Assembly: GCA_008632985.1 (NCBI GenBank)
Contig: QPGO01000210.1
Location: forward strand, 14,365 to 78,364
DNA from: Psammoneis japonica
Taxonomy: Eukaryota
DNA length: 64,000 nt
Reading direction: 5' to 3'
In this document: piece after piece, positions 1 to 59,949 of the stretch
Layout of the letters: every line of letters begins with the position of its first letter
How positions within the stretch are numbered: position 1 is the first letter of the stretch
Made by a program: the position numbers and the translations under genes
Notes under the pieces: model-generated
Told to the model about the DNA's origin: nothing
The model's input: the letters and a program-made list of their open reading frames with translations, nothing else
Databases searched by the model: none

Positions 1-2376
1 GTTCGCGGCGATTTGCAGAAACACGGGATCGATTTTTTCGAGACCTGCGCGCCGGCAGTGCAATGGTCGTCCATGCGCCTTCTCCTCACCACGGTGCTCA
101 AGGAAGGTTGGACTGCACGTCAAGTGGACTGTGCTGCAGCCTTCTGCCAAGCTGATGTCAAGGAGAAGGTCTGTGTAGAGCCTCCCAAGGGTTTCCAGCC
201 AAAATCGGGTGCCGATCTGGCACCAAAATTGTTGAAAGGCCCACACGGCCTACGCCAGTCTCCCAAGTGCTTCTATGAAAAGCTGAGGGACGGATTGCTC
301 GAAAGAGGATGGATTCAATCCGCCATTGACCCTTGTCTTTATTTCAAAAAGGGTGTGTTGTGTGTGGCACATGTTGATGATGCCGTGTTCGCCGGCACAT
401 CGGCCCAAGCCTTGGAAGCAGAGATTGCCAAGTTGGGCATTTCTGATGATGAGCAACGCCATGTCTTTGATCTACGTGATGAAGGCGAAGTCGGCAACTT
501 TCTAGGTATCAAGATTCAAAAGCTCGAAGACGGCCGATTCCTCCTGACCCAACCCGGCCTAATTGAGAAAGTTCTCCGCACCGCACAGATGACCAAGTGC
601 AACGGCGCACCCACTCCTGCCTTGCCTGCTCCTGCTGGCAGCGACACCGACGGGCCACCGTTCGACGAGCCTTATGACTGCCGTTCCGTGGTCGGCATGC
701 TGATGCATCTAGCGTCCAACAGCCGCCCGGACATTGCTTGCGCGACCCATCAAGTCGCACGGTTCTCGACTTGTTCCAGACTTAGGTGGCGCGCAAATGC
801 CCCTTTTCGCAGAAAAAATAATTTTTTAATGCTTTATTGAACACCGTACATATTTAATAAAATTGATCATATCAATGGCTTCGAAGTAAAATAAACAGAA
901 TAAACTCGAACAAACAAACAGCCAAACCGGCCATGGCTTTCAGTGACCATGACGGCCCACTTTTTTCAGCCTTATGGAAAATTGAATGTCATGACCAGGA
1001 TCTCCGTATTTGATATAGTCTGTGTCATCAACAACAATAGTGAAAATGCTTGTTGAAGGCTGCAGCGCGGCACAATAATGCTAAATCTGTCAGCAACAAC
1101 AATTGAGCCTCTATTCACTCACAATTTGCCTCTAAGGACCATTTCTTTTCTATTACCATGTATATTTCCTCAATATATTCGACTGATTCAAGTGTATCAA
1201 TCGTTTATGCCTTTTAAACCGTGAAAAATGGTCCGAAGTCGACGCCATTGCGTGGGCTGAGCTACACTTCTTCTCACGTCGTCCTAAACTTATTAATCAG
1301 CGTATGCTTTATTCGATCCGTTGAGTGTAACTCGTATTTGCGTATATAAACAAAATATTAATTATGCTATGTTAAAGACTTAATTTATATATATTAATTT
1401 TATTTTATATGTTTCTTGTTACATTTAGGCATATATAAATCGCTCATCGGAAAATTCGAGCTCTCAACTTACGGTACAATTTAGCGACTAACAACCGAGT
1501 CCATCAACAGTTTCGAATACATGGGTACACGCACAAGACAATTCTGTATGTACCCATAACAACACATTTGTAAATTGTTATGTTTTTACTATCGAAAATG
1601 GTACCGCAAGTGTGGACCGCGCGTTTCATGCAAAAAGGGTCATTTTTTCGCGCGTGAGTGCACCTGAGTCTGGAACAAGTCTCTCCTGCGTACCCAAGGC
1701 CTCCCACGCTGTGGCCATCAAGCGCATTCTTCGTCACCTGAAGGATGCGGCCGACAAAGGACTTGTCCTAACTCCAACGGCCGATCAACGACTCGACTGC
1801 TATGTTGATGCTGATTTCGCGGGACTCTTCAGTGTTGAAGATGGACAAGATCCCACGTCTGTTGAGTCACGCACGGGACATGTCGTTCATCATGCAGGAT
1901 GTCCGATTGTCTGGGTGTCCAAGTTACAGACCCTCGTCACACTCTCCACCATGGAAGCCGAGTGTGTCGCCCTCTCCCAAGCGATGCGTGATCTCATCCC
2001 CCTTCGCGAGATCGTGAAGGAAATCAACGCGCTCGTTTTCGGACAGCCGGACAGACAGACCGATATTTCGACACATTCGAAGGCTTTCCGACACGCCAAC
2101 GATGGAACTGAGGATTCTCCCATTGACTCTACTAACCTCCCAGCATCCGTTGTGTACGAAGACAATGCTGCCTGCCTCCAATTCGCCCGCATGCCAAAAT
2201 TGTCCCCACGAACCAAGCACATCGGCATTCCCTGCCATTGGTTTCGCACTAAAGTTGAGGCTTTGGAGATCAAAATTGAGCCTGTGAGCTCAGCTGCACA
2301 GCTTGCTGACCAGTTTACTAAAGGATTGACTATTGATCTATTCCGTGCTGGTCGCAAAGCCCTCATGGGCTGGTGA
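1..2376 (+). mobile_element. Ty1/copia (CoDi-like) retrotransposon, 3' part of pol (RT + RNase H), truncated by the window edge and split by a 914-bp insertion
   Basis: The translation has copia RT/RNaseH motifs: FFET(C)APAV, (H)GLRQSP, (H)VDD, FLGIKI, RPDIA, YVDADFAG, WVSKLQ, STMEAE, YEDNAAC, RTKHI, QLADQFTK. Removing 768-1685 rejoins ARF-SCVPKASHAVAIKRI in frame. Confidence 0.95.
768..1681. mobile_element. Non-autonomous TIR DNA transposon (MITE-like), 914 bp, nested in the copia pol
   Basis: 21-bp TIRs GACTTGTTCCAGACTTAGGTG (768-788) and CACCTGAGTCTGGAACAAGTC (1661-1681) with 1 mismatch. 4-bp TSD TCTC (764-767 and 1682-1685). AT-rich interior with no convincing ORF. Confidence 0.92.
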
Positions 2377-2402
2377 CTGATGGTTCTCCTTCTCTTTTCG
2401 GT

Positions 2403-2717
2403 TGAGAGGGAGAGTCACGAGTCAACAACCGAGTCTGATTCACGGATGACGCTTCCGGTCATGGATCTCTTCTTCCGGAAGAAATGTCCGTTGAGTCTTC
2501 TAGCGATAGTAATCGGAGTGACACACACGACCGTTAGGTCATAATGTCATCTCCAATCCCTCGTGAGATCTTCTCACAATTCGTATCTTTAGCGTATCTT
2601 ATTGTCCCAAAACTACTTCTTATCATCCTCTGTTGTATTGTACAACCTCAAGAGAGTCCTGAACTCTCCATCCTACACAGTGTATTGTTGTATCCCAAGT
2701 CTGTCGATCCTCTCACA
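2403..2717 (+). repeat. Polypurine tract and probable 3' LTR of the first copia
   Basis: TGAGAGGGAG at 2403-2412 follows the pol stop and is identical to the PPT of the second copia. The LTR end (..CTCTCACA, ~2717) is a guess because the 5' LTR is outside the window. Confidence 0.55.
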
Positions 2718-27283: not shown

Positions 27284-27599
27284 TGTCACATTGTAATCGC
27301 ATCTCGGTTTGGCAATTTTTGTTTTTTTATGTGTTTTCTTTGTTGTGGTCGATGATCGACGACTCCCTTGCAGTCTGGCACAACATAAATGTTAAACAAG
27401 ACGATGTCCGCAGTCGTGGGAGTTTGTGTAGCAGCATGTAGGAACACTACCAGATGAAAACACGATTGCAATTAAAGACAACAAGGCCCTGTAAGTTTGC
27501 GAATGTCGCAGATGTTTCCACGACCCACGACACAAAAGATTGGCTCTGTTGACACTTGGTTGCAATTTTCTAACTTCCAATCACCATTGTTCTAAACGT

Positions 27600-30500
27600 C
27601 AAGCTTCAGTCAAAGTGTCAATGCATTGCATGTTGATGCAAAAGAGCAAACAACTTGCGTGCAGGTGATGCAGCTGCACCATGAAAATGTGCCGAGAGTT
27701 TCAAAGCCCTTGCTCATGCAAAGCTTCTTTTGGCACAAGTGTGATGGAATTGTTTCCTTGTTCCACAAGAAATGTGGCAAAGTCAGGCTTGTTGCTGGGA
27801 GCTTGCCCGCAAAGGCCAGTGGCAGGCACGCCACTGTGGTGCGACTTTGCAGCAGGACTGTCCTTGCCAAAAAGGCTTGTGCCAGCTTGTCACTTTCACA
27901 CTGCTGGGCCCAATGTAAAAGCCGTCAAAGGCAGCAGCAAAGTCATTGGTGGCTGGGGTGGCAATGCTGGCAGGAACTTTGTGCACTTGCACCAAATTTT
28001 GGGGCTGATTCATTCTTGCTTTGTGCCTCCTTCCAAGCTCTTCGCTTCCTGTTGTTGAATGACAACAGGAGGCCATGTGCCCCACATTGTCCAGGTCCAC
28101 TTTGCTGCAGCCTTGAGACAGAGCCTTGCACTCACCAGGCTCAAATTCTTTGCCACCCACAAGATGACAGTGCTCAAATCATTTGAAAAGTTGCCAAGAT
28201 GGGCAACAGCTGAAGTGGGGCAAGTTGTGGCATTGGCGCTTCCAGCACCTTTGGGAAGCTTTTGAACAACACAAAGAAGTGCCTGGGGTTGGAGCTCTCC
28301 TGAGTTGCTGCAAGAGCCTCCTCACTCACTTGGTGTTGGAACACTCTTGTGGTTTGAGGCAATTTTGGCAGGGCAGACAGACAGCGATGCAGCAAAGATC
28401 GCCAATGATGGCCTGTGATGATGATGAGGGTTTGCACCAACAAATTCCAAAGAATGCTGATTTTTGGCTTTTGCGTCAGGTTGACATGGCAACAGCATGG
28501 AGAGTGTGGTTGCAAGCCATTCAGCAAGTTTTGGAGTTGTTGCAGAGTTGGTTGACAAAACCTTGAAGCTCCAACACAGGAGCCAAAAAGAGGCACAAAG
28601 TCTGGGAAGTCAAGGGGGAAATCCAAGGGAAGGCTGAGAAGCCAAAGGAATGGAAAGTGAGGTGGGATCCAAGGTTTGTTGCTCCAGTTGAAGGAGTGGC
28701 TGGGTGAACTTTTGTGTTGCCCTGGCTTGGGGAGCTTCTGGCACCTGCAATCTCTGGAGGGTCTTTGCCAGGACCAAGCAGCAAGCACCCACTGAAAGAG
28801 GGTGTGGCAACATTGTGTCAGGATGGCAACAATGTGCACAAGAAAATGGTCAAGTGCAGGGGCATGAAAGATTTGAGGGAGTGGGTGCATGACATGGGAT
28901 GACAGGCAGATGGTTGCATGTGGAGAGCATGAAGAAGACAAGTGAGTGCATTGGAAGAGTGTTTGGACCAGAGATGCAAGCGTTGGTGTCTCCGAGGCAA
29001 GAGAACAGTCCAAAGGAGCCAGAGCATCTGTCAGAGTTGTCTGCATCAGAGAAGGACAAGACTGTCTGGGAGAAATGGTGCAGCTGCTGCATGAAACAGA
29101 GGGCATGATCCACAAGACACAGAAGGCAAAGGCACTTGACACAATCATGGGACAGCATGCAAAGGGTGTCCATCACAAGGTCAAAGGAGTGACAGATTTT
29201 GCAAAGGTTGCAAAGAAGTGGGGTGTGGCAGTGCTGTCAGACATTCTCAAGTTGATCTTGTTGGATGCAAATGAGAGACTTCACCCTGGGTGTTGCCACT
29301 TGCAGCAAGAATTGCAGTGGCGGTCTGTTTGCACAGTGACCTCTGTGCATGTTTTGTGCTTTCATCTGTCCCTGCCACCTCCAGCCCAATCCAACTGGAG
29401 TCGGGTTGGTTGGGTTTGGGCTGGAGGTGGTGGGGACAGATGAAGGTGCAAAATGTGTGCAGAAATCACCACACAGACAGACCGCCACTGCGATTCTCAC
29501 TGCGAGTGGGGTGACACCCAACCCACATGACATTCAAACTGCAAGAGCTTGGGAGGGGCAGTTGGCGATCATTCATCAAGATGGGGAGAAGGCACTCAAA
29601 ATGTCACTGCAGTGGGCTCAGATTTTTTTTGAGATGGTGGAAGGGTCCTGCAGCAAAATTGTCCCAGAAGACATCATGCCAAGAAAGACAATGGATTCAG
29701 TGCAAATGCTGATGATCCCCAGAAGAAAAGGGTGAGACAAGCTGTCAGCAGCTTTGCCAATGGAGTGCATGCACCAAAAGAAAAGAAACTTTGGCACACA
29801 TCTTGAAAAACCTGCATTGGCTGTTTGCACTGGGGGTGGGCAACAATCCCAAGCTGGTCAAGGAGGCACTGCATGCAGGCACTGAGGGTGCATGTTTTGA
29901 GCTGGGACAGAAGAGACCAAATGCTGGAAATGTGACAAAGCTGGGCACATGATGAAAAAGGGTTGTCCTTTGCTCAATGAAAAAGATGGCAACTCTCAAT
30001 GGTGGACTCAGATGAGGCTGGCCAAGGGTCTCATTGGAACAAGCAATGCAGGGGCTGGGTGGCATGGTGCCCAGTTGTCGTCCTCCTTTGGCTGGTGTGC
30101 ACAAGGTCAGCTGGTCAACAGCTTGTGTGAAGGAGTGTTTTTGAACATTGTGGTTTGAGGCAGTTTTCTGAGGATGGGTGGACAATGTTTCAGCAAAAGA
30201 TTGCTGATGATTGATGATGACATGGAGGGTCTGCATTGACAAACTCTGAAGAACATCAGTCCTGTGCTCACTTTTTTGCATCTGCGCCAGGCTGGCATGG
30301 CAACAACACAGAGAATGTTTTTGCAATCCACAGGGCAAGTTCCAGAGTGGACAGGCTAACACAAAGTTGTGTCAACACTGCTTTCTGTGAGCAGCTCTCA
30401 TCATGGTTTGCACAGCATCACTTTGAAGCAAGGCTGGTCTGTTTTTTCTTTCACACGCAACCTCACCCACCTTTGCTGCTTTGTTGCTGCAATGCAAACA

Positions 30501-33360
30501 GAGCACCAACCTTTGTTTTGATGCAACCCCACAAATGTGTTTCATGGGCCAAACGCTGCAGTGGCACCTCAGCAGTGCCATGGAGAGAGGCCACACAAAA
30601 TGTCAGAACATGGTTTCATGCTTTGTGTTTGCTGTGACCAATGCAGCGGCACATCTTTTTTTGCTGAGCCTTTTTTCAACGTTGTGGAGCATTGACAACA
30701 GTCTCCTGTTTGTTCTGTTGTGTTGTTGAGGTGTGTGCATCTTCTGCCAAAAACTGTTTGCAGATTGGACAATTGGAGCTCACAGAATGGCTGGCATGTC
30801 AAGTTGTCTTGACAACTCCACTTGCAACTCAACAATCAAACACATGCACCTCAAGCGTTGCACTTGCATCTGGTTTCTGTTGCTCAAGAAAATGTGGAAA
30901 TCTCAATCTGTGTGGTGGGGTGGACATGCATCAGATTCGATTGAAACAAAAAAGCTCTCTTTCAGCAACACTGAGCAGCACAGCACTTTTCACCTTAAAA
31001 AAATGGTTCATTGTCAGGATCTTTTTTTATGAAGTCAATCCCCAGTGCAGCACTGCAAGGTTGTGTTGAGTGCAGCTTCTGCAGCAGCTTTGTGAAAAAC
31101 CTTGTGTCTTGTTGCTGAGTCAAGTCCTGCTTTTTTGTGTGCAAAGCAGTGTCTTTCTTGCATCTTGCACATGCCTGAGAAAGGCATCAACCTTCACACA
31201 CCTCACTTTTGAAAAAGGGTTGTCCTCCATGTGCGCTTTTCTTGTGATGCTGCATTTCTTTTCCAGCAAAGTGACAGGGTTGTTTTCCCATTTTGGTGCT
31301 GAAAACACCTCTTGGCTGTGGCAGTCAATCTTGCAGTGATTGCATTGAGAACAGAAGAGTCCTCAGAAGCAGCTCTCACCAAAAGTTAAGTTGTGGCAAC
31401 CAAGATGTGGAGCCAAGTCAGGCTGACTTGCTCCAGCCAACTGGGCCCAATTGCTCAAGTGCTTTGTCACTCTGCAAGCCATGGCTCACCTTCTGTGTGC
31501 TCTCCCCCCTGCTGTGACCCAGCCAGCCCAATGTGTGTGCAGCTTGACAGCAGGATCCACCTTGAGGGAAAAGGAAAAAGGCTGTGGAGACAAAAGCCAA
31601 GAAGGGGCAGCAGAGCTGAGTTGCTGAAAGAGCTGCATGGCGTGCGCAGCCACAGTGTAGAACAATCAGGGGGGAGGATGCTCTTTTTTCCAAAATTGCC
31701 CACTGTTGTGAAAGCGTGCAACTTTGCATGTCACATGCCATTGCAAACAGGGCACTGCCAGAACATGAGCTTGCACTTGTGAGCACCACAGAAATGTGCC
31801 ACAATCAGGTGTTGAAGGGGGCAATTGGATCTGAAAAATTTCTGTTTTTTAGATTTGAGTTGCAAGCGCCAACTCTCAGCACAAACCACTTGCACAACAT
31901 GACCCACCATGCCACAATGCGCCATTGCTCTTGAGTGTGCTGTGATGCACCAGACCTGCCTCCTCTGCCTCTTGGATGGCACTGAACTCATTCTTGTTCT
32001 TGTGTTTGACAACGTGGGTGTCCACATCATTGTTGTTTGCGGCAAGCAATGAAGATCATTTGTCTCAACTTGCTGGTGTGCTCATTTTGTCAATGCAACA
32101 TTGCACAAGTTTGCTCTGAGCTCTGGGCTGTTTGTCCAAGAATCCTGAACTTGTCATGGATCCTTCTCTTGGCAAAAAGGCTCGTTGCACTTGTTTCAGC
32201 ATGTGTGACAAAGCTTTCAGCATTGGTGGCTTGAAGCCCTGTTGCTCTTCATGCTTTCTTTGTTTTTGTTTCTTGCCCCATGTGCCTTTGAATTTCTGAT
32301 GTGCTTTGTGAGACACAGCTGCAAATCTGCAATTTTGGAGTTTCTGGCTGGCATTGCCCACAAGCTTGTTCAAGGAATTTGTGCAGATCTGGCCAGATGA
32401 ACGGGTTGTGTGTGTCTTTCTGTAGCCTCTTTTTTTGTTGAACACATCATTCTTGTGGTTGGAGTCTGATGGCATGAAATGCTTTTTGATGGGTGCCAAC
32501 ACAGTGCCTTCCTCTTGTGGCACTCACTCACAGCTGTTGTTGGAAACACCCACATCACAGAGGGTTGTTGCTGCAGTGCCAGTTGAGGCTGTCATTCTCT
32601 GGCATGAGGAGAGCAAGCAACCTCACCCACATTCAACAGTCATCGGCCTTTTTCATTTCAGCATCTGTGGATTGTGAGTTCACATGCAGCAGCAGCCAGA
32701 ATCACCAATGCATGGCTTGTTTGCCAAGCTGATTTGGCAATTGTCATGACAAGACTTGATTCTTGTCTGCCATGCCAGTTCACTGTGTGAGACCATTTTG
32801 TTGTCATTCTGCAACTCGCACATCTGGTGACAGCAGCAACACTCAGCTGCTTTCTCTCATGTGCAAAGAAGACACAAAAGGTTTTAATCTCCACCATCAC
32901 TTGTTGACACAGTCATTTGATCTGTGTGGCATTGGTCTGCAAGGCATTGGCAGTGGAGCAGAGCTTGGAGAAAAGGGAGACCTGATCCCTTCAGGACGTT
33001 GCTTCAGCAATTGCCCAGCAGTGCACATTTCCAGCTGCAGGCCATTTCAGTTTCAGATTTCCATGGGCGTGGAGAAGCCCAAACATCCTTCACCTGCAGA
33101 GGGAAGATCTTTTTTGAGTTGATGAATGCAACCGAAGTGCAGAGTTGTGCAAGGATGAAGGGGCTTCCCTCCTCAGTGCTGCTGGGCACAATTCCGTCGT
33201 TGTTGATGCTTTTTCGCGTGACTCAACACCTGATTGTGGTGGGTGTCCACAACACATTTCCCTTGCCACATGGGCACCGCAGACCGGAAGAACTTCCATA
33301 GCACAAAAATCTGTGGATGGGCGGGCAAGTTGCCACCGAACAAAACGACCGGTCTGCTGC
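27600..33360. repeat. Heavily decayed repeat/TE-derived tract, almost devoid of TA and depleted of CG
   Basis: TG/CA-saturated sequence giving spurious Cys/His/Gln-rich, nearly Tyr-free ORFs in all frames. The first ~350 bp are homologous to ~59960-60390. Confidence 0.75.
29287..29520. repeat. Imperfect inverted repeat (arms ~110 bp, short spacer)
   Basis: GCAGTGGCGGTCTGT...TTCATCTGTCCC..CCACCTCCAGCCCAA is mirrored by TTGGGCTGGAGGTGG..GGGACAGATGAA...ACAGACCGCCACTGC. Confidence 0.85.
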
Positions 33361-39989: not shown

Positions 39990-42900
39990 GCACTGGTGCT
40001 ACTACATGTTGTATTGTGGGAGTTTGGTCTGCTGGATGGTGGACGGACGGCAAGGTGAAAAAATTGTCAGCAGCTGCCACAGCTGCTGGAGCAGTTTTCT
40101 TCCTTCTTGCGCCTTTTCCCACTTCCAATTTGGCATCCACTGAAATCACAATGATGTCATGGCTAGTTGGCATGGGCTGCAGCAAAATCAACAAAGGCAA
40201 TGAGTCAATTGGTTTTGACAGTTGCGGCAGCAAAGTTGTTGTCAACAGACGGAGCTTTTGCTTTTGAAAGTCTGCAGCATTGCAAGCAACAACAAACAAA
40301 AGCACCCAGATCACTGCAATTTCTGTCAGCCTGCCTGCATTGGCTCCCACCCAAAACTTGGCAATGGACAACACAAGCAAGCATTTGAAATGTGTGGACA
40401 AAACTCATCCTCCAGCGGCCAAGCAATCAATTGTTTGGTTTCTCTTGCAGCGTGTTCTTGAAAGTTCTTCAAAAGATGGCTGTCAAGGGCCAAAACTCTT
40501 CAAAGAAAGCTGTTGGCCTCATGCCAGTGATGGCAAGAAACTTGAGATGGGGTGCTCCTGTCAAGCCAGACAATGTCAGAGAACCAATGGGCGAAGCAAA
40601 GGTTGGCAGTTGGCAAGACTGTTGCAGAACGCTGGGGCAAGAAAAAAGCTCTGACCTCAAGCACAGCAAAGATTTTCAAGCTGGCACATCAGGAACACCA
40701 ATGATCTGGGTGTCGCACCTCCCATCAAGATTTTTTGAGTTGCAGCCAGGCAATTTTTTTTTAACCCAATGTCCAAGACTGCACCAATTTGTCCAGCCCA
40801 CATTTGTGTGAAACACTCAACGACAAACGCCTGCATTCCTGAAGTCAACATTTTCTCTGCCACATGGACAAGACTGCAGCATGATTTGTGTCATGTCAAT
40901 TCCTGAGTGAGGTGTTGCCTGCTTTCCTGGATCAAAATCTCTTCAGCCGTGCATCAAGCTGGAGATTCTCTTCCTTGCTCCAAATTTTTTGCTCCCTGTT
41001 GTTGCCATTCTCTGTTTTTGTGTGATGCCCCTGGCATTGCTCTTCCTCATTTGTCTTGACAGCACAGCATCTTTTGGCCCCACTCTTCACCAAGTGATTG
41101 CTGTTCAGTGTGATTGACATTTGCTTTCATTGCAGCGGCCTTGCTGTTTCTCCAAAGTGCTTTGCAGAGGGTGCAGTCTGATGATGGTCTCATTTGTCCT
41201 TGGTGCAAATGTTCTGGGTTCAGCTCCATGTGTGTGGTCTTAGCCGGCACACCCACACAATGCCAGCTGTCTCTGTTCTGTGGGTCCAACCAAGTCTTTC
41301 AGTTGTCCACATTGTGGACAATGTGGTTTTGACTCCAAAAGCCAGGTGCAGCATCACCTTTCTCATCACTGCCACACATCTGCTGTTCTCCCTTTTTGCC
41401 AGGAACACACTTGCACTCAAGGACTTGATGCCATCTTGTCCAACAACTGCACTGGGGAATCCCGTTGGAGAAAGGACACATGAGATTCTCTGCCATGGAT
41501 GCAAGAGCAAGTGTCAAGCTTTTCCATCATCTGGGCCATTGCTGCACAAGTCATTGCACACAGCAGGCTCCCTGCCTTTTGCTGGCACCATGCAACCAAC
41601 TGCCAGAGTGGGGCCTTGCAAGGACAGTCCTGAAAGTTCTGGGCTGCCGGCAGCCTCAAACGTTCCCGTGCATTGCATCAAACGTTCCCACCATGCCCAA
41701 AGGAAGATGCGCGCAAGATTTGAATTCCCTCCAATGTGCCGGGACCGTGCTGCTGTTGCTTCAAATGCAGTTGCATCTCCAACAAACACCACAAACCGCA
41801 GCAACAAACCATGAGCTGCCCATGTGCTTCATCTGCTGCTTCACTGCTCAAGGGTGCTGAAGAAAATGATGCAATGCCAGCAAAACATGCTGAAAGATGT
41901 CCAGAGCACATTGAACAGTGGGGAGAAAGCATCACAGCAGAAGTTGAAAGAAGTTGTCAGCAAGCTCAAAGTTGTTGAAAATGGCCTTTCCATTTTGCAA
42001 GTGATGATGAAAGGAGCAACTGTGACAGCAGCTCATGCCACTCATCTCCCCAACAATCAGTGCGTCCACAATCGTTTGAACAGTGAAAAAGCCCACAAGA
42101 AGCAAATGCAAGAGAATGTGAGCAGGAGCCAATCACAAGAATCAAAAGCTGCCAGCCCCAAATGTCCATCCAATTCCCTTGCTGTGCTGGAGGATGTGTG
42201 CCAAAGTGTGAACAACGAAGAAAATCAACCACCGAAGCCTCGACCTCCCCAGAATTTCACCTGCTGCAAAGCCCAGAGTCGCAGCTGCAGCACCACAAAG
42301 ATCTCCCAAAATGACACAGGCAATGTTGTGTCTTGGACAATGATGACAATGCGGTCGAAGAGCAGGTGGAAAGGGTCAAAAAGGACCAGAGGACAACTGC
42401 ACGCGTGAACGAGAGACGCACAAAAAAGGCTCATGAGGAGGTGTGCAAGTTTCTCATCAAAACAAGTCCAGTGCTCAAGCAGTTGCACCATGCTCACAGG
42501 ATTGCCTTTTTTGGACTACGATGAGACTCTCTGACAAATGCCAACATTGCAAGTGTCCTCCAGGCTCCATCGCGTCATTTTGTTCCCACAGCATGCACTT
42601 TCCAAATGTTGCGACACAGCCGAAAAATGACGTGGCATGATTGTGCACCGACCAAGTCCCCAAGAAGGACATCAAGCATTTCAAAAAACCATCTTAACAT
42701 GCATGACAGGTGAGCCAAATGACGCAGAGTGGGGCGAGGCATGGGGCTCCCAAATGGACACACTGTGGTGGTGCAAATGCCACGAAAAAGATGCCAACAC
42801 CACCCACGCAACAATCGACTGCACGAGATGATCAACCCACCTGTGAAGCTTTGACAAAGTGCAAACAACATCTTTGGTGAGCATGCAATTGGTGTAAAAT

Positions 42901-45829: not shown

Positions 45830-48800
45830 TCCTCGCATCCCGAAAGATCTGCATGTTGCCATCACGCGCGACATGTCAGAAAAATGCGCGGCTGCTGCGC
45901 AGTTTCGCAAGATGTTTTGCTCGAACATCCATGACCTCACAATGAGACAGCAGCGCTTTACCTGCACCACCGCTGTTGACGATGGGCACCATCACAATGT
46001 CCCCTGCTCTGCCCCCACTTCTGCTGCTTCTCATTGTGGTGCTGCAATGTTGTGCCAGCTCACCTTGACAGTGCACTTTGGCGCACAGCATCTGGCTGCT
46101 GCCTGCGTGCGGTGTGCAAGAAAACGACATGGCGGGCAAAGCCTTCCCTCCCAGAAAATGAAGCAGAGGGCACCAGAATCAAGTCACAAGGAGAGCGCAA
46201 GATTGGCATCAGGGGAAATGGTGAAGCGGCCCCCAAAAAACTGCGCAGATCTGCCGCAACAACAAAGCGCAGCTGCGGGAGCTCTGGGCAGCTGCCTCGC
46301 TTGCTGAGTCAATGGCCGGCGGGATTGACAAACAGTTTTTGATGTCAGTGCACAGGGGGGGGTGCAGTCTGGTGGCANTTGCACCTCTTTCCTCAAGTCT
46401 TTGTCTCACAAAGATGCCGCAAGCTGGGGAGGGTCGAGGCTGCTCTGCAGCCCACGAGAGCTGCTGTCCATGTCAGAGGCGCCCTTGCCGCCGGCACAAG
46501 CCAGTGCAAGCTCTGTGGACAAGCTCCATCTGCCTGTCTGCTGCCTGCCCATGAACCTGCCAAATCAAGTGCTGCGACCAGCACTGCAGAGCCTTCAAGG
46601 GCACATGAAAAGCTGGGCCTGAAGCTCTGCGGTGCACTGGGCAGGGCTTCAGCCCCAAGCGATGTGCCTTTGGACTTTTTTCTTGTTTGTGAGCTGGTTC
46701 TTTGTCCAAAAAAGCTTTGTTTGTGCACCCATGCTGGCAGTTTTTTGAAGCTCTTTTGAAGGGCTGGCTTGAGAGTGTGCTGAATTGGAAACGGTGCGAA
46801 GCCACACAACAACCTTGCTCTGCCTGGAGCTGGAAAGCACCGCTGCCTCCATCTGCCTGTCTGCTGCCGGTCCATCAGCCTGCTCAATCCAAGCATGCAT
46901 GGTGATTGTCCCTTGTGTCAACAAGGGCTGTGGCCAGCACTGCAGAGCCTTGAAAGGCACATGGAAAAGCTGGGCCCCAAGCTCTGTGGTGCACTGGGGG
47001 CAGGGCTTCAGCCAGCCCCAAGTGAGGCAGGTGCCTTTGGACTTTTTTCTTGTTTGTGAGCTGGTTCTTTGGCCACAAAAGCTTTGTTTGTGTGCCCATG
47101 CCAGCAGACTTTTGAAGCTTTTGAAGGACTGGCTTGAGAGTGAGCTGTGTTGGAAATGGCGCAAAGTCGCGCAACCTTGTTCTGCCTGGAGCTGGAAAAT
47201 GCTGTTGGAGCTGCAAGCCACCTGCTTCCTTTTGCTGCTCAAGAGAAGCCACAGACCCAGAGACAGAGAAGCCCACAGCAGTTTTGACCCAAGCCTTCCG
47301 GGGTTCGGCATCAACCATGGGGCCACGCATGGAGCAGGTGGGCCTCAGAGTGGTGCTGGCCTTTGTGCAGCCCTTGTTGGGGCTGGAAGCAACAAGCTCA
47401 TCTTGTGGGGTGTTGCGCTGTGGTGGGCAGAGTGCACGTGGCAGGTGTCATGCCACAGCCAAGTTTGTCACCCTGCCACTTCTCTTTTGGCTGGTGGTTC
47501 TTGGGTTCTTCAGCACACAGTCATTTCTGTGGCCCTGGCTGCATCTGCTTTGACAACTGCAGCAGTTGTTCCCTCTGTGGCACAGAGCACCAGTGTGGGC
47601 TCTGGTGGAGTGTGCTCTTGAGAGCAGCGGCCACTTTTGTCTTGCACTTTGTGGGGTTGACCAGTTGTTTGTGATGTGCAAGGAGGGCCAGCATGAATTT
47701 GGCTTCTTCTGGGGGGCAGCTTGAGCCCCAACATCCCTGTGCTTCAAATGCCATCAGGAGGCTGTGCTGGTTCTTTGAAGGTCTTCTCAGCAAGAGCGTG
47801 CTTGAGCACAGCATCTCATGTGTTGTGCAAGCAAAGGTGCTGCCAGTCTTGCTTGCTGCTGCAATCAGCAGCAGCTGGGAAAAGCCCTGACATCATCTGA
47901 GATCGGAGGTTGTTGGCACACACCTGTGGAGACAGAAACAGCTTCCCAAAGCCATGCCAGAAGTGCCCCAAATCACAAAAACAAAACATCATCCAAGGTC
48001 AGACATTGAGCTGCCATTGTTTGTCATGCAGGGCTGCAAGCATCTCTTTCAACACACGTGCAAAAGCTGGACAGCTTGGTCATCACAGAGTTTCTTGGCA
48101 GTGTCCTCCAGAAGGCCACAGCTCCACCTTTTGTCCTCTGCCTTCAATCCAAAGCACAAAGCTTCAAGCCAGGCAAACTTCTTGGTGACAAGCACACTGT
48201 CACCAAGTTGGGCAACTTTCTCTCATGTTGGGAAGCTCTCAAGATGCTCCTCTTGGATCAACCCAGACTGGTGCCACTTTGCTGCAATGCCCAGCTGGGG
48301 CAGCTTGGCATGGAGAGGCAACACTTGGTTGACAAGATTTGTCACTTTCTTTTGGGCTCACGCTGAAGCAGAACTCCACCAAAGCAAAACACAGCCACAC
48401 GCAGAGCATGATTCAAAAACAGACAGGCTCCCGGAGGGGGGGGGGGAGGCAACAAGTGTTGCTGTCTTGGCATCCCGCCCACCCCTCTTTTTGAGTGGGA
48501 TTCTTTGCACCCCGTTTTCTTCTGTGTGCTGCTTGCTTGCTGCAGACTTTTGTTTGTGCTGGCAAAAGCATCTGGTGGGTGTGACCACACAAATCCAAAT
48601 TGCAACTTTTGAGCTGAGCACCACAGAGAGAACAGTCCCTTGATGTCCCAAGGCACCATCTGGCAAAATCAGCACATGAGATGGACCATCTCCAAATGTT
48701 GCTTCTGGCAGCCAGACAATCTTTGTGTTGCACTCACTGCAATGCAGTGCGCCCATTGCCCACCACTTCACTTTTTCATTTTTCTCAACATCTTGTGTTT

Positions 48801-50584
48801 TTCAACTCTGTCATGCACTTGGCTGCAAAAGTGCACAGCACGGCTGTGAAATGATGAGGTTCTGTCTTCCCAGAGTTGTGCTGCAATCAGGTGCGGAGCC
48901 TCGTGGATGCTCTAGAAAAATGGAATCTTGACAAAAACAGCTTCAGAAAAAACACTTTTCTTGTCATTTCTTGTGTCTGCAACTCTCTTTGTTGGCATCA
49001 ACAACAACACCAGAATTGCCTCCAATGCCACAGCAAAGAGAGTGTTTTTGGTCATTGCACACAACATCCACTTGGCTGCGCTTGTCACAACTTGAGCACA
49101 GCTGTCCAGCTGCAGGCAAAGGCCAACCAAACTTCTTTGCTCTCGTGCGGGGATGTCAAAGTGAAGTTGCCTGCAGATGCTGGAAACCATGTCTGCGGTT
49201 GTTGCAACAGCATTTCAGAGGGTGTTGTTGCCAAAAACATGTTTTGTCACACAAACAGCATCAACACAATGAAACAGGGGCACTCCTGCTTTGCTCTGCC
49301 CTCTCTTCTGGAATGAAAGAGAGAGCAACAGCTGACCAAAGCAGGTCTCTTTGCTTCCAGCAGCTGAGAGCAGCAAGAGAGCAGAGGATCTCCACAAAAC
49401 ACACCACAACACTGACAGACATTTGGACCTGATGGAGTCATGCAACATCCACTCCTTTCCACTGTGTTTTCCTGTGGCCACTGGACATCAACTGAAAATG
49501 CAAGAATCATCACAACAGAGAGCCGCGCCACCTTGACCTTGCAGGCTTGAGGTGTTCGAGTTGTTTTGTTGCTGCTCAGCAGCTGCTTCAAAAGCTCCTG
49601 ACAAAAAGTGACTTTTTCAACTTCCAGGGCTGAACTCTCAGGAACAAACTGTGTTGGCATGATGCATCAAAACAAGGAGAGGCTCCAAGACCTGGTCTCG
49701 TGTGCACGCGGCCAATGTCAGAACCAAAGCAATGGGCCCAAAGAGAGAGATGTCACAACAGCACCCACTGATCCAGCAAGAAGCACATCAGTTGATGACA
49801 GCTCATGTTGCCTTTAACAGTGAACACCAAGTCCTCCCATGATCTGGATGAAAATCAGCTGCAGACAAGAAGCCCCCCCACAACTTGGGTGTCGTTTGAA
49901 AAGTGTGGCCATTTGTGCTGTCAAGATCATCGCCATTGTTGGTGTCTGCATCAGATGGAGCATGACAGCATGGGCCCAAGGGGACAGTGAAGACTTTGTT
50001 TTCCACTCAGGAATGAAGTCACGCTGAATGTTTTGCAAGGAAATGAGCCCAGGTGTCAGTCATTTGAAAAGCCAAGTGTGTGCTGCCAACTGGAAAGTCA
50101 GGGTCGGAGCAGATGGAACCCAAGGGGTTTGAGCTGGTGTTTTCACAGAAAAAATGACAAAGGCCAGAAACAAATTTGTTTCCACCCACACTCAAAATGG
50201 TTTTCCTCCTCCCAGCGTCAGCTGTGCTTCGACAAGAAGACACCAGAAAAACAACAAGTGGGGGGGGGGGGGGCGGCGCAAGCTTCAGGAAATGGTTGCG
50301 CTGCTGTGGATGCTGACATCAACAATGACGAGAATGATGTGATGATGACTTGGCTGGTGTCGAGGATGCAGAGGAGGTTGACACCGCAGCTTCAAACAAC
50401 AGAGCAACATGGTGGTTCGCTGATGATGTGTTGATTGTTGTTTCTGCGATGCGTGCTCTGTGTGGGGGTGGATCGGCACTCGTGACTGACAGATGAAAAA
50501 ATCGAAATGTCGCCGATCCAATTGCCCCCCTCGACAATGGTGCAACAAGCTTGTTGCTCCTGCTGTCTGCTGCACTGCACAGCA
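45830..50584. repeat. Heavily decayed TA-depleted tract with an internal ~300-bp direct duplication; insertion target of the copia
   Basis: Essentially no TA. 46579-46850 resembles 46935-47200. The tract continues on the other side of the copia (56874-57150). One N at 46378. Confidence 0.75.
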
Positions 50585-50792
50585 TGTTTAAACACTCAAA
50601 AGCAGATCAGCAGCGGCAGCTGGTGATGACTGGTGAGTGTTGGGGCGATCAAACAGGTGTTGCAATGACAGCTGTGGCAAAATTGTGAGGATGTGAGAGG
50701 CTCCTCGTCTCTCATTGAAGACCGATGTTCATGAGTCATTTTTGGGACAGTGAGTCATAATGCAATGACGCATGAAATATGACATCTTCACA
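50585..50792 (-). repeat. 3' LTR (208 bp)
   Basis: Direct repeat of 56661-56867, adjacent to the PPT TGAGAGGGAG (minus strand). Confidence 0.95.
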
Positions 50793-50861
50793 CTCCCTCT
50801 CATTTTGATCTCATGCATCTCAAAAATGAAGGTTTGACGCACTTTGCGCGCGAATCCACTT

Positions 50862-53800
50862 TTAAAGCACTTCAAATACCTGCCAACCCATTGCTTTCGG
50901 TCGCAACCAAAGCAGAACGTCCAGATTGACCGCTTTAGTTAGAAAATCGGCCAATTGTGCAGCAGTGTCGATAGAGTGGATTGAGATCTCCTTTCGACTG
51001 ACACAGTCACGGAAATGGTGCAGCTTCACGTTGAGGTGCTTGGTGCGCGGTCTGTGCTCATGTGCCTTCGCCATTTCCAGCGCGCCGCTGTTGTCCTCAA
51101 AAACTTTGCAGTGCATCTTCGCCGTCGTCGAGTTGATTGGACACCCTCGCAACTTCAGTTCCTTCAACATTTCCATCACAGGGATGGCCTCTCGCAAGGC
51201 ATGCGACAATCCGGTGTGTTCACTTTCGGTGCTGGACAACGCCATTTCAGTCTGTAGCTGAGACTTCCAAAGGATCGGACAACCAGCGTAAGTGATGACA
51301 TACCCGTGACGGGATCTTGCGGTGTCTCTGTCGCTCGCGGCTTCCTTTCGATCCCAATTGCCGCTGAAGTCGGCGTCTACGTACACCTCCAAATCCTTTT
51401 TGGAATCTGGTTTCAGAATTGCACCTTTGTCTCTCGTGGCATGCAGATGTCTGCCTAGCCACCGTATGGCCTCGCCATGTTCTACCTTCGGGTCTGCAGT
51501 GAATCTCGCGCACTGGTGCGCAATGTATGCGATGTCGCTTCGGGTGCATTTCTCCAAGTAATTCAGCTTACCGATGATCGACCTGTAATTGAAGGAATTG
51601 TCAAATGGTCTTGATTCTGAATGCCTGGATAGGAGCTTGGATGAAGCTGCAGGTGTGTCTTTTCCGACGACACTCGGTTTATCAAGTCGCAAGTCTTTCA
51701 GAATCTGGTTGATCAGGTGGGGTTGCGTCAGGTGCATCGTTCCATCCGACTTTCTGGTGATGTTTATGCCAAGGAAATCTTGAATGTCGCCTTCCACCGT
51801 GACATCTAACTTTGCTTGCTTGATTTCCTCTATGATCTTGTTGATCTCAGATTCATCAGGGCCTGCGAGCAAAGAATCATCCGTGTGGAGAAGGCAAATC
51901 GTTTTTCCGCGATAAAACACACACTCGTCGACCTTGGATTGCTCGAAACCCAACTTGTTGACTAACTTGTCCACGAGACACTTGTTCCAGACTCGCCCTG
52001 CCTGCTTCTGCCCGTGTGCATTCCGATGCAAGCGTAGGACATAATCCTTGGTGTTGGCGCCTTCGAGCTCGAATCCGGACGGAATCTCCATGTAGAGATC
52101 CTTTTCGACCGGTGCTTGAGGAAAAGCGAGGACATAATCCAGTTGCTTTGAATGCCACCCATGTGCTCCCACTAAGGCAAGCAGCAGCTGCATTGAATTT
52201 CGTGATGCAACCGGCGCACACGTCTCATCGTAGTCTTTTCCTTTTCTCATCCTCGAGCCGTCAATGTTAAGTCGCGCTTTCCACTTCTTCACCTTTCGGG
52301 TGCGCACGTCTCGCTTTCGCTTCATTTGCCACACTGCAGGTAGCACTTTTCTGTCTTGTTTCACCTGTGATCTTGGAATGATGGAGTGGTTTCCATTTTC
52401 CATTTGATCCTTCACCTCTTTTTGCATCGCCTTGAGGAACTCCTTGCGGCCCGGTTCTTTCATGGCTTGGTGCATGTACATGGTGTCAGGATCTGCTGAT
52501 GCTTTGTGGGCAAGGAGGGGATTTGCGACTTCTTCTTGGAGGGCTTGCGAGTCTCGAGGATGCAGTGCGGCCAAGCACAGCAGTTCTCCTTCGACGCCTC
52601 CTTCAGTGTCTTTCTTGATCTCAGTCTCCATGGACTCAATCAATCTGCTGACCGGTTGGCTCTTGCGCCCTGATCGTGTCACTTTTGGTTCAGCATGACC
52701 GTCTCGTGCTTGATCAGACTCGCCCTCATGTGGAGGTGCTTCTAGAGATTCAGTCCTTTCGGATGCGTTGGCCTTGTTGTGATTGGGCTCTCGGCGCATC
52801 TCTCGTTCGGACACCGATTGGCTGTCGGTTACTGCAGTGTCGCCATCTTGTGGCCGTGTTAGTTGGTCAGCCCAACGAATGGTTCTTCGTTTCTTGCCTT
52901 GCCCCGCTCCCTCTGAAGCTCGTGCGCGCTTCTTCTTGGGACGATCCGGAGCACTTGTGGGAGCCGTTTTGGTCTCGCCACTCTTCTTGGTTCCTTTTGT
53001 CTCCCTCTGAGCAACGAACTTGGCTTTTACTTGCCACAGAGAATCGTAAGTGTCTTGCTTCAGCGTGTGGAATGATGGATCAAATTTTACGTGGAACTGT
53101 GGACTCACCAGTGCCGACTCTCGGTCGAGTGCCAGGGCCACGTTCTTGCCATGTTGTGGGCTTCGGCCTGAGCACATTCCAACCCTTGATCTGTCTTTCC
53201 ATTTGTGGTGCGGCAGACCTGATTGCAATGTGGAGTCCAATGCGTACACTGGGCAACCAAATGGTTTCCAGTGCTTTGGATTGGTGGCAACTTTCGTGTT
53301 GGAAAACAGCTGGAGTGGGCTTGATCGGTCTTTGTGTTGGAGGTTGGGCGCATGATTGATGGCGTCACAGGCCATGCGAATCGCGCAGGGCCATAAATTT
53401 GCGGCAATGCACTTCTTCCAGCGGCTGTTGGCATGGATCAACATTGTTCGGGCGAGCTCTTGGAGCTCTCGGATCCGTCGCTCCGCCGTGCCATTTTGGT
53501 GATGAGCGCCCACGGCAGCGAACGTCAGTTGTTGCCCTTGTCTCCTGCACGCATGCACCCAGTCGTTGGCCTTGAACATTCCGTTGTCAGCATGGCAAGC
53601 CTGAACGGTCACGCCACAACTCTTTGCATGCAACTCGAAAGCTTGTTTTCCCTCTGACGTTTCAGCTGCCGTTGCTGTCTTTTGCAGACAAACGCAACCC
53701 AATTTGGAGTGCTGGTCGACATAGACTGTGGCGCACTTGCACCGTTTTGTGGTCAAGAAGCCCGTCATTTGTGCGATTGGACCCGGTGTCGGAGACACCA

Positions 53801-55010: not shown

Positions 55011-55326
55011 GGTCCACCCTCGTCGTACCCGGTGCCATCTCTTCCGTTTCGGCGTGCATCCGGGCTTGTCAGTTGGGGTCGGTCGCGTAGAAGTAAATGT
55101 AGATCAGGACCATCGCTGTCGACAGTAAAATTAGAGCATGAGCTAGCAGCTTTTGTTCAATCACTCGTTTGTTTTCAAATGAGAGCGACGTCATTATAAT
55201 GGTCATGTGGTTGCAGGCGAATGCCTGCCAGGCGAAGAGCGCAGTTGCCTTGATGATCGCAAAACACTTCGACGCCATGGTTTCCAACCCATGTCCATCA
55301 CAACCGCTGCAGCCGTGCTCAAGGAG

Positions 55327-56638
55327 TCATTGAGACTCCTCGCCCGAGTCCTGCCCGTCCACTGCGGCTTGGCATGCTTTGTTGAGCTTGAGCCGTGGGT
55401 GTCCGTCAGGTCCCTTCTGTTTCTTGTGGGGTGGTGCTGTAGACTCGTTTTTCTGTGGCTTGTTCTTGCCTTCTCTGCCTTCACATTGGGAGGGCTTGTG
55501 GACACGCCACTTGCCAGAACACTTGCCGCCGGCACTCTTCTCACACCAACAGCATGCGGTGCCTTTCCAAGTTCTCGGGTTGGTTGGCTGGTCTCGTTTG
55601 GGACGCCTGTGTTTCTTCAACCACGCAGGCTTCCCGTCTTTCTGAGCACCTTGAGACGCGTCGTGGTCTTTTCCCTTGTTTCCCGTCTTCTTGTGGGATT
55701 TCTTGCTGAGGGCCTCCACTTGAGCTTGGAGAGCCAAGATCTTTTCTTCAGACGCACTGGGGGTGTTCCACAGCAATTTCTGAAGCAGGTTCTTGCACTT
55801 GTTGCCTGCGAGGTTCATAAAGTTGCGACGCCGACATGTCCTCGCCCTCTTCACACTGTTCTTGCTTGCGCTCGATGCACTTGACAAAAACTTTGTCGGA
55901 AGCAGCCAGGCACCCCTTGAAGAGGTTCGCAAGCAGGTCCTCAGTGGTTTCGCCTCGTGACTTAAGGGCGGCAAGCAACAATGCCACGTGCTGGTTGAAC
56001 TTCAAGATGTCATGACCGATCGTTGGGAGACAGAGGTCGAGTTGACTCAATTTCGTTCGGATCGCACTCGTCGTGGCGTTCGCATCGAGGTGGGATTCTC
56101 TGATGATGATCTTGAGAAGGAGATTTCCGGACATACGATCTCCGATCTTGCACTCTGATTCCCAGATCCTCACTTTATCCTTTCCGGCTTTCGATGTGGA
56201 GTTCATCAGGCAGCGATGCGCTAGACAGGTGTCTTGCGCTGCGCGACTCTCGTTGCCGATGTGGGATTCTTCAAAGCCCCGGATCCTCTCTGGGTCCATC
56301 TGACCACAGTCGGTCAACAGATTAGACCTCTCGGATTCCAGGATGTCTTCGTGGTCTTCTGGGATCATGAATGTTCCGTTCTCATCATTCCACCCAAACT
56401 CTCTGGCTCTGTCTTCCAAGTTCTTGAGGAACTGGCACAGGTCTCCTGGTTCACAATCGAACAATTCCTCGTCCAGCGGCTTGGTGGCTTGCTCAAAAAG
56501 CTTACGACCCGCACTCGAACGACAATCGATGACCGTGGTGATCGCTTGTGCCGGAGCCAATGCAAATGGGACATCTTCGGGAACATCTCCTAGCTCCGGT
56601 CCAGAAACGGACGAAGCGTCTGAAGAGGCGTCAGACAT
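55327..56638 (-). CDS. gag: Copia gag (1-nt frameshift at ~55820)
   Basis: PFALAPAQA, SGNLLLKIII, DILKFNQHV and LLANLFKG in the first frame. The second frame carries the C-terminal knuckle WKGTACCWC...WRVHKPSQC. Confidence 0.85.
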
Positions 56639-56645
56639 GTTACTC

Positions 56646-56660
56646 AGCGCAGAGGAAGCG
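56646..56660 (-). other. Putative primer-binding site complementary to the D-arm of initiator tRNA-Met
   Basis: The + strand AGCGCAGAGGAAGCG(TG) directly abuts the 5' LTR and resembles eukaryotic tRNA-iMet GGCGCAGCGGAAGCGUG (recalled from memory). Confidence 0.65.
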
Positions 56661-56867
56661 TGTTTAAATCTCAAAAGCAGATCAGCAGCGGTAGCTAGTG
56701 ATGACTAGCAAGCATTGGGGCGATCAAATAGGTGTTACAATAACAGCTGTAGTAAAATTGTGAGGATGTGAGAGGCTCCTCGTCTCTCATTGAAGACCGA
56801 TGTTTATGAGTCATTTTTGGGACAGTGAGTCATAATGTAATGACGTATGAAATATGATATCTTCACA
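56661..56867 (-). repeat. 5' LTR (207 bp)
   Basis: Direct repeat of 50585-50792; retains most TA sites. Confidence 0.95.
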
Positions 56868-59626: not shown

Positions 59627-59949
59627 TGTCACATTGTAGCAGCATCTCGGTTTCGCAATTTTTGTTTTCTATGTGCTATGTTTGTTGTGGTCGATGATCG
59701 GCGACCTCCCTTATGCAGTCTGGCACAATAAATGTTAGACAAGACAATGTCCGCCGTCGCGGGACTTCTTGCAGCACCAGTAAGAACACTGCCAGATGAA
59801 AACACGATTGCAATTAGAGACAATGAGGCCCTGTAAGTTTGCGAATGTCTCGGATGTTTCCACGACCCACGACCCACGACACAAAAGATTGACTCCATCG
59901 CTTGGGTGCAATCTTCTCATTTCTAATCACCATTGTTCCAATCGTCAAG

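Follow-up and report, generated by a model that had tools for sequence, protein, structure and literature searches.

The window analysed here, a 64,000-nucleotide stretch of the Psammoneis japonica genome (GenBank assembly GCA_008632985.1, contig QPGO01000210.1, positions 14,365 to 78,364 of the forward strand), contains two Ty1/copia retrotransposons that carry cysteine or histidine at many positions where their relatives have tyrosine. One of them, called copy A, lies at the start of the window, and the other, copia #2, is a full-length element found at 50581..56867 on the minus strand. TpA-directed hypermutation of silenced mobile DNA, acting at the level of the DNA itself, is the best reading of this pattern and a probable one. 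The changes run from A:T to G:C, fall at TpA (TA) steps and strike both strands about equally. In copia #2 they arose at least in part after integration, and within the window they are confined to particular regions.

Copy A is represented by two parts of its pol frame on the plus strand. The reverse transcriptase (RT) part is found at 1..763, its 5' side being cut by the window edge, and the RNase H part at 1682..2376, ending at the TGA stop codon at 2374-2376. An initial annotation of this sequence had listed ten motifs with Cys or His in place of the Tyr of typical copia proteins, and all ten were found when 1-840 and 1492-2376 were translated in frame 1. For comparison, 120 longer relatives of copy A were collected and 56 were aligned (38-63% identity). 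In every flagged column the majority residue of these 56 relatives is indeed Tyr. When the columns are named after the residues of copy A, Tyr is present in 48/56 relatives at VDC (Phe in the rest), 43/56 at VC, 56/56 at PH, 53/56 at AH of the YVDD box, 56/56 at DC, 47/56 at MH, 30/56 at IAC (Phe in 25), 56/56 at RH, 34/56 at TGH (where His occurs naturally in 9), 54/54 at EAEC and 48/53 at IPC. Five columns, including that of the catalytic Tyr of YVDD, have Tyr in 53-56 of the 56 relatives. Eight Tyr-majority columns are occupied by Cys or His within 1-763, where the YVDD box reads HVDD at 370-381. In the RNase H part, RYLK reads RHLK, EAEY reads EAEC and IPYH reads IPCH.

A stricter count was limited to the 11 columns in which 70% or more of the relatives have Tyr. 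Copy A has Cys or His in ten of these columns and Tyr in one. Among the 56 related proteins, 50 have no Cys or His in any of the 11 columns and six have a single one; the corresponding numbers for a control set of 80 metagenomic copia loci are 75 and five. Among the relatives, Tyr gives way naturally to Phe and Trp rather than to Cys or His. The overall Tyr content is 1.0% in copy A and 2.1% in copia #2, as against 3.88 +/- 0.71% (minimum 1.7) in 60 control loci. The replacement of Tyr by Cys or His is therefore confirmed as a real observation, far beyond chance.

The same signature is present in copia #2, which has five Cys/His, five Tyr and one Leu at the 11 columns. In RT/RNase H the amino-acid identity between the two elements is no more than 35-38%, and the proposal that a second, independent copia family bears the same mark is thus borne out. 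One could still suppose that Cys and His are simply the tolerated sequence of the family, the TA context being a coincidence. The uniformity of the family is in keeping with this idea, since among 848 contigs of the matched DNA sequencing run (run X1) 190 are alike at 99% or more and 216 at 95-99%, and no Tyr-derived codon occurs among the best-supported 40 of 318 variable places. However, none of the 136 relatives has more than one such residue, the catalytic Tyr of YVDD and nine other near-invariant tyrosines were lost together in copy A, and an unrelated family in the same window displays the same pattern. A tolerated family sequence is accordingly a very improbable explanation, and the nucleotide context of the changes, given below, makes a coincidence harder still to accept.

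The spectrum of the changes in copy A was derived from consensus columns. At a threshold of 80% agreement among the 56 relatives, copy A differs at 27 of 197 columns, with 18 differences of the A>G/T>C type, one of the G>A/C>T type, four transversions and four multi-step differences, the polarity resting on relatives no closer than 63%. In a leave-one-out analysis of each relative, this skew was never seen. At a second threshold of 60%, the 60 differences comprise 15 A>G, 10 T>C, five G>A, no C>T, 13 single transversions and 17 multi-step differences, the last two classes being at the same level as in the relatives. An inferred ancestral TpA holds 22 of the 25 A>G/T>C changes, including 11 of the 14 that lie outside Tyr codons, as would not be expected of a family's own sequence. 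By codon, these TpA changes are TAY to TGY or CAY (11), T|ACN to T|GCN (four), GTA to GCA (three), CTA to CCA (two), T|AAG to T|GAG (one) and T|ATC to T|GTC (one), where the bar marks a codon boundary. Among the conserved residues, 9/10 Tyr, 5/11 Thr, 3/12 Val, 2/24 Leu, 0/8 Ile, 0/5 Met and 1/15 Phe were changed. The effect is TpA-specific and not tyrosine-specific. The two strands were struck to a similar degree (15 A>G and 10 T>C), and the changes show no significant clustering into strand runs in copy A (runs test, p = 0.15).

The dinucleotide composition of the elements agrees with this spectrum. In copy A the observed/expected ratio (O/E) is 0.30 for TA, 1.40 for TG, 1.18 for CA and 0.90 for CG; the last value is in line with the abundant CpGs reported by the initial annotation. 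The TA ratio of copy A ranges from 0.09 to 0.49 in 250-bp bins. The two copia copies together have a TA O/E of 0.29-0.33 with CG at 0.86-0.90, while the 60 control loci have a TA O/E of 0.63 +/- 0.12 (minimum 0.35). Among the TA steps that survive (104 sites), TAT contexts are scarce and TAG contexts frequent, a weak preference that is of value as a lead only. Two more general causes of such a bias were considered and rejected. GC-biased gene conversion does not fit two A>C and no T>G among the 60 differences, nor the strict TpA context. Selection against UpA in RNA leaves the loss of an invariant catalytic Tyr unexplained.

On these grounds, most of the ancestral TpA steps in the coding DNA of copy A would have been lost by A:T>G:C transitions that turned TA into TG or CA. 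As every Tyr codon is TAY, a change of its TA recodes Tyr to Cys (TGY) or His (CAY). By the same rule, Thr would become Ala at T|ACN, Val would become Ala at GTA, Leu would become Pro at CTA and Lys would become Glu at T|AAG. Such a process would leave the frame open while catalytic residues such as the Y of YVDD vanish. A>G and T>C changes can create no stop codon in either frame, the probability for a random substitution being 0.033-0.042, and both copia frames are consequently open despite the loss of catalytic residues. The process is read as host-encoded, as working on both strands and at least partly on integrated DNA, and as delimited to sharp-edged domains (transposons and other silenced or foreign DNA), sparing the neighbouring genes. 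In the window, sharp edges lie at 27593, 45959, 56650 and 59924. A slower decay of CpG in the same domains would complete its action, both together leading to an end state free of TA and CG and rich in TG/CA. As for the chemistry, an ADAT2/TadA-like deaminase, perhaps guided by chromatin or small RNA, is presumed to convert the adenine of TpA to inosine.

The timing of the changes can be read from the long terminal repeats (LTRs) of copia #2, which directly flank the element at 50581-50792 and 56657-56867 and are identical at 193 of 212 positions. The first LTR holds three TA and the second 15. The 19 differing positions comprise 12 cases of TA against TG or CA, four that form two TG-versus-CA doublets, one CA against CG and two indel positions, so that 16/19 are of the TA type. 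The doublets are best explained by an ancestral TA that was resolved differently in each LTR, which gives the direction TA to TG/CA. In these terms, the two LTRs have lost 14 and 2, respectively, of 17 ancestral TA. As LTRs are identical at integration, at least 16 changes arose in integrated DNA, and the process therefore acts at least in part on integrated DNA, after integration. The strongly mutated LTR adjoins a block of DNA devoid of TA (block 3, described below). The TA O/E stays at 0.08-0.40 through copia #2 and then rises sharply to 0.62 at 56501, the LTR at 56657 being at 0.62 as well. Independent action in separate copies is also apparent for the family of copy A, as the major other copies in run X1 read CA at 2064 and TG at 2317, two sites at which the window keeps TA.

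These data bear directly on the idea that the elements were edited before integration, by an adenosine deaminase acting on the genomic RNA (A>G), on the minus-strand cDNA (T>C) or on both, the mutated copies being inserted afterwards. In animals, APOBEC3 and ADAR enzymes work in this way on the cDNA or RNA of retroviruses and retrotransposons and leave a one-strand signature (G>A or A>G), and ADARs are metazoan. Pre-integration editing would account for the multi-copy nature of the family, for the untouched element inserted into copy A, and for interiors that are more depleted in TA than one LTR (0.09-0.49 versus 0.68 in copy A, 0.08-0.40 versus 0.62 in copia #2). The UA context itself is one preferred by tRNA-type and ADAR deaminases, the available text of a recent preprint stating for ADAR a preference for U on the 5' side of the edited A (bioRxiv 10.64898/2026.01.13.699255). 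Editing of the ADAR or APOBEC type should nevertheless leave a one-strand signature and LTRs that are identical for the edits. Instead, A>G and T>C changes are about equal and without significant strand runs, and the LTRs of copia #2 differ greatly, the mutated one lying next to a TA-free block. Furthermore, about 17 kb of blocks are free of TA without any detectable copia homology, and single-copy DNA integrated in the genome of the chlorarachniophyte Bigelowiella natans acquires such a signature de novo, according to the available text of the same preprint. Editing before integration is thus unlikely as the general explanation, and a mixed RNA-plus-cDNA route keeps some likelihood for the interiors of the elements.

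The hypermutation is not a property of the window as a whole. A segment of about 3 kb with a 655-aa open reading frame (ORF) of no known family is found in three copies, about 80% identical, at 24800-27821, 43281-45775 and 57172-60194. When these host paralogues were polarised two against one, the AT>GC transitions amounted to 50, 62 and 47 and the GC>AT transitions to 56, 52 and 42, with 96, 116 and 78 transversions, and no enrichment at TpA was observed in the three segments. This ordinary spectrum implies a regional process and not a genome-wide one. The host genes have a TA O/E of 0.5-0.6 and a CG O/E of about 1.0. Within the 64 kb, mobile or foreign DNA is affected, and the rest is ordinary in spectrum as far as the paralogues and a dinucleotide map of the window show. 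The initial annotation had proposed a mutator that is host-wide rather than a quirk of the RT of one element. The second half of this proposal stands, given two lineages, both strands, the LTR pair and TA-free DNA without a recognisable RT. Host-wide reach does not, in view of the balanced paralogues, the composition of the genes and a TA-rich element inside copy A. The process is host-encoded and regionally targeted, and it is probably episodic.

The most extreme depletion was found outside the two retrotransposons, in four blocks nearly free of both TA and CG. Block 1 (27593..33299) has a TA O/E of 0.00-0.06, CG at 0.10-0.15, TG and CA at 1.6-2.25 and a TA-free run of 2441 bp. Block 2 (40164..42517) was delimited by a dinucleotide scan and its TA-free runs. 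Block 3 (45959..50589) contains a TA-free run of 2954 bp at 45959-48913 and 500-bp bins with 0-1 TA. Block 4 (59924..64000), likewise found by the dinucleotide scan, runs off the window end. In a 1-kb scan, the four blocks have a TA O/E of 0.00-0.07, CG at about 0.1-0.3 (0.52 in one edge bin) and TG and CA at about 1.5-2.25. A TA O/E of 0.07 or less is reached in about 17 of the 64 one-kb windows, which thus form TpA-poor, CpA- and TpG-rich clusters. The longest TA-free run in the blocks, 2954 bp, compares with 322 bp in 293 kb of control loci. The sequence of the blocks is complex and not of the microsatellite type, as read in block 1. The sum of the O/E values of TA, CG, TG and CA is about 3.8 in genes and in blocks alike, so that transitions of TA and CG into TG and CA alone explain the composition of the blocks. 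These look like the end state of the TpA process combined with CpG decay, the copia copies (TA 0.3, CG 0.9) being at an earlier stage. The graded series from the copia copies (TA 0.29-0.30, CG 0.86-0.90) to the blocks (TA 0.00-0.07, CG about 0.1-0.3) fits the earlier suggestion that TA loss precedes or outpaces the decay of CpG.

The coincidence of TA and CpG loss in the same blocks could also point to error-prone repair synthesis in methylated, deamination-prone heterochromatin, by a polymerase-eta-like enzyme mis-pairing at WA. Polymerase eta mis-pairs at WA motifs in immunoglobulin somatic hypermutation, and a repair process of this kind would also account for changes on both strands. On the other hand, the copia copies lost TA with CG nearly intact (O/E 0.86-0.90), and this makes the loss of TA independent of CpG deamination events. 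AA, which should suffer as well, is undepleted (O/E 1.06-1.18 in the copia copies and 1.21 window-wide), and just 3 of the 25 changes lie outside TpA. Repair synthesis is therefore held to be rather improbable, even less likely than editing before integration.

The origin of the blocks was sought by homology. Among 51 block ORFs of at least 110 aa, just two marginal Pfam matches were obtained, IER (E 0.0029) and PEP-utilizers_C (E 2.2e-5), and block 2 gave no Pfam match when read in six frames through stops. When 127 copia-related proteins served as tblastn queries, no match beyond the two elements had an E-value below 0.04. A comparison of the blocks with one another by purine/pyrimidine-recoded 26-mers revealed no homology beyond the first ~200 bp common to 27593+ and 59924+. 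In the homologous TA-free tails of two of the paralogous segments, TG-versus-CA doublets were found at 8/279 versus 6/2698, a level that equals the one given by random alignment of TG/CA-rich DNA. The PEP-utilizers_C match belongs to a 152-aa ORF in block 4 (60045-60500, minus strand) that resembles the C-terminal PEP-binding domain of phosphoenolpyruvate (PEP) synthase, with a further match to PDB 2ols_A (E 3.7e-5). This ORF may be a hypermutated pseudogene or a foreign fragment. Each copy of the ~3-kb segment is followed by a TA/CG-free block. In all three cases the block starts at a roughly equivalent homologous position, ~500 bp upstream of the start of the 655-aa ORF, as though the limit of the mutated domain were fixed there. 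A single N is present at 46378, inside block 3.

The two parts of copy A are separated by a third mobile element, and the region 1-2376, first taken as copia throughout, is copia only in its flanking parts. The interval 768..1681 is occupied by an AT-rich, non-autonomous terminal inverted repeat (TIR) element of 914 bp that resembles a miniature inverted-repeat transposable element. Its ends (768-788 and 1661-1681) form a 21-nt inverted repeat that is 95% complementary and begins GACTTGTTCCAGAC. The 4-bp target-site duplication TCTC is seen in the sequence at 764..767 on the left and 1682-1685 on the right. The empty site was also recovered, in Logan contigs from other copies where 763 and 1682 are connected through the 4 shared letters at a depth of 719. 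As the 914 bp and the 4-bp duplication add up to 918, or 3 x 306, the pol frame of copy A continues across the insertion. The TIR element is itself highly repeated, with a summed word depth of 1700-6900 in run X1.

Several facts weigh against TpA-directed hypermutation of integrated DNA, in part or in whole. The TIR element keeps 74 TA (O/E 0.83) although it sits inside a mutated copy, and the 3' LTR of copy A, with a TA O/E of about 0.66-0.68, is undepleted too. Either the process was uneven at this locus or it ended before the TIR element arrived, and such uneven or interrupted action fits an episodic process. The sparing of a high-copy TIR element also means that duplication does not appear to be the trigger. 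Within copy A itself, 23 TA remain in 1455 bp although 10 of the 11 conserved tyrosines are gone, owing either to later regeneration of TA or to a preference for Tyr-type contexts. The family of copy A is highly repeated, and a mutated founder may therefore have been amplified, its Cys and His being inherited by the copies. The asymmetry between the LTRs of copia #2 could in principle have arisen during reverse transcription. The evidence consists of fossil sequence, and the enzyme is a presumed one. Finally, the read comparison covered positions 1-4000 of the window, the TA-free blocks lying outside this interval, and run X1 may be the very sample from which the window was assembled.

This last point is also what could be said for an artefact of assembly or base calling at modified bases, the only DNA run matched being possibly the source sample and the blocks being outside the read comparison. 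However, 55% of the sampled 31-mers of 1-2400 are present in the contigs of the run, of which 190 are alike at 99% or more, and the changes are codon-coherent in two elements. Moreover, miscalls of modified A on both strands should yield CG, which is by contrast depleted. An artefact is the least probable of the explanations considered and can hardly be credited. TpA-directed hypermutation of silenced mobile DNA remains the reading to be preferred.

A closely similar process is described in the available text of a preprint on B. natans (Mettrop et al., 14 Apr 2026, bioRxiv 10.64898/2026.01.13.699255). Mutation-accumulation lines of this organism yielded 231 mutations in two integrated viral regions, of which 230 were A>G/T>C, all of these on TpA. 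Relative to the remaining genome, the mutation rate is ~1000-fold higher in an integrated nucleocytoplasmic large DNA virus (NCLDV) and in a virophage insert, and this in some lines only (10.64898/2026.01.13.699255). According to the same source, reverse-transcriptase and DDE domains are over-represented in TpA-poor, CpA- and TpG-rich clusters, and an ADAT2-like DNA adenine deaminase is proposed. The likeness to the Psammoneis window extends to A>G/T>C changes at TpA, to both strands, to delimited foreign DNA and to episodic action. The differences concern first the host, B. natans being a rhizarian and P. japonica a diatom and hence a stramenopile. The targets in B. natans are an NCLDV and a virophage, with rho(TpA) still at 0.45, whereas two copia LTR retrotransposons are affected here along with blocks that have zero TA over up to 2954 bp. 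The loss of CpG that accompanies the loss of TA here is not mentioned in the available part of 10.64898/2026.01.13.699255. De novo mutations were measured in B. natans, whereas the diatom case is known from its fossil traces alone. Hypermutation of A:T to G:C targeted to TpA has been reported once before, for these integrated viruses of a chlorarachniophyte, and literature searches for TpA-directed mutation in diatoms returned no report. A term search for mutation patterns in the relevant sense likewise found none in the available text of the CoDi study of diatom Ty1/copia elements (Maumus et al. 2009, PMC2806351), which like the present copies have an RVT_2-type RT, or of a diatom transposon preprint (10.1101/2025.10.24.684338).

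Other known systems offer partial parallels. Deaminase-type hypermutation of retroelements is shared with APOBEC3 and ADAR, which differ from the present case in strand and in substrate, both strands of integrated DNA being affected here. In bacteria, TadA recodes Tyr (UAC) to Cys (UGC) in mRNAs. Both cases turn Tyr into Cys through A>I after U, but the TadA reaction is at the RNA level, site-specific and non-heritable. The repeat-induced point mutation (RIP) of filamentous fungi changes C to T at CpA, thereby creating TpA and stop codons. RIP is likewise described as C>T in the available text of PMC7296669. The present pattern resembles RIP as a host process that produces transitions in transposons in a dinucleotide context, on both strands, with leakage into flanks and destruction of coding capacity. 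It is otherwise the mirror image of fungal RIP, as TpA is destroyed, the GC content goes up and no stop codons are made. RIP proper was rejected as an explanation in view of the TA>TG/CA polarity, the absence of C>T with five G>A, the depletion of TA and the two open frames.

A bolder interpretation is possible and is put forward tentatively. Diatoms may possess a RIP-like genome defence by adenine deamination, in which a host deaminase directed to silenced mobile or foreign DNA would turn every TpA into TpG or CpA on both strands. The decay of methyl-CpG would help to erase all TA and CG, and the products would be genes that are 'open but dead' and kilobase-scale fossils free of TA and CG. 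Since a rhizarian bears this signature as well, the system would date far back within the SAR supergroup (stramenopiles, alveolates and Rhizaria), and it might rank with RIP and APOBEC as a third major form of mutational genome defence in eukaryotes. If the hypermutation is truly at work in a diatom, the process is not peculiar to one alga and its targets extend to LTR retrotransposons. Its long-term outcome would then be visible here, from the loss of Tyr codons in open frames and a local gain in GC to DNA that is finally free of TA and CG. For diatom genomics, rho(TA) against rho(TG+CA) would provide a simple marker of silenced or foreign DNA. Transposon ORFs that look intact may be dead, and standard substitution models do not hold for TpA-mutated regions. 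Tracking down the enzyme would also become tractable, in a group of organisms with genetic tools.

The assignment of the elements themselves can be completed as follows. Copy A matches Pfam RVT_2 (PF07727) over 1-768 with an E-value of 2.6e-29, and its frame 1 has two open stretches, the first reaching from the window edge to 840 and the second from 1492 to the TGA. The tail at 1682-2373 gave no match in a Pfam search; it aligns to the C-terminal part (RNase H end) of 56 copia polyproteins. An RVT_2-type RT followed by an RNase H that closes pol is a mark of Ty1/copia, whose gene order also places the integrase upstream of the RT; copy A begins inside the RT at the window edge. A purine run resembling a polypurine tract (2404-2414, plus strand) lies downstream of the stop codon of copy A. 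The probable 3' LTR on the same strand extends to ~2700 (2404..2700 with the purine run), these limits being approximate and drawn from read depth and loose contig ends. In run X1, the summed depth is 7400-10700 over 2413-2680 and 43 after 2815, and four contigs have loose ends at 2700; the stretch of very high depth, ~290 bp ending near 2700, thus resembles a 3' LTR. Over 1-2700 as a whole the summed depth is 680-10700, against 43-133 beyond 2815, which reflects a highly repeated family. Among the sequencing runs listed for 1-2400, none was of RNA. Cylindrotheca closterium, a diatom (40%), is the sole organism identified by name in the list of 120 relatives. A protein search for shorter fragments gave seven matches, the best being 61% identical, and no protein of the same family was found among them. 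A metagenome scan with the copy A protein matched 89 stretches, none of which was confirmed, and the alignment-based scan provided the 80 loci used above, all at most 59% identical. Copy A is best explained as a diatom Ty1/copia element that is now dead. Three of the metagenomic loci with a copia RT-RNase H (L009, L024 and L043) have TA at 0.35-0.40, CG at 0.19-0.29 and TG at 1.6-1.7 and keep the conserved tyrosines; they look like cases of CpG decay without the Tyr signature.

Copia #2 has an RVT_2 match with an E-value of 2.4e-40. Its frame of 1413 codons (50862-55103, minus strand) is fully open despite an LTR divergence of 9% and the loss of 5 of the 11 conserved tyrosines. A Pfam search of this frame found no integrase core domain and gave a weak gag_pre-integrase match (E 3.5e-4) that is below the curated cut-off.

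Several further features of the window were recorded. A search of the ESM Atlas with the triplicated 655-aa gene gave no lead (best score 0.81). The region 15824-16966 consists of internal repeats, ~70-84% identical between units, within overlapping ORFs, each longer than 700 codons, on both strands; these repeats have no Pfam match, a CA O/E of 0.52 and a GC content of 57%. A gene with the helicase-associated (HA) domain, which is much expanded in diatoms, is found at 4449-5966 on the minus strand. It has six repeats (domains E 1e-123), internal repeats in a 201-bp phase with 90-93% identity, and a TA O/E of only 0.26, which may come from codon choice or from a mild exposure to the TpA process. 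A DUF389 membrane protein is also encoded in the window, its best named relatives being from Seminavis, Cylindrotheca, Attheya and a metagenome-assembled genome of Bacillariaceae (43-49%). Finally, 12464-14727 and 18807-21079 contain tandem genes that resemble family-C G-protein-coupled receptors (ANF_receptor and 7tm_3 domains) and share 71% DNA identity.

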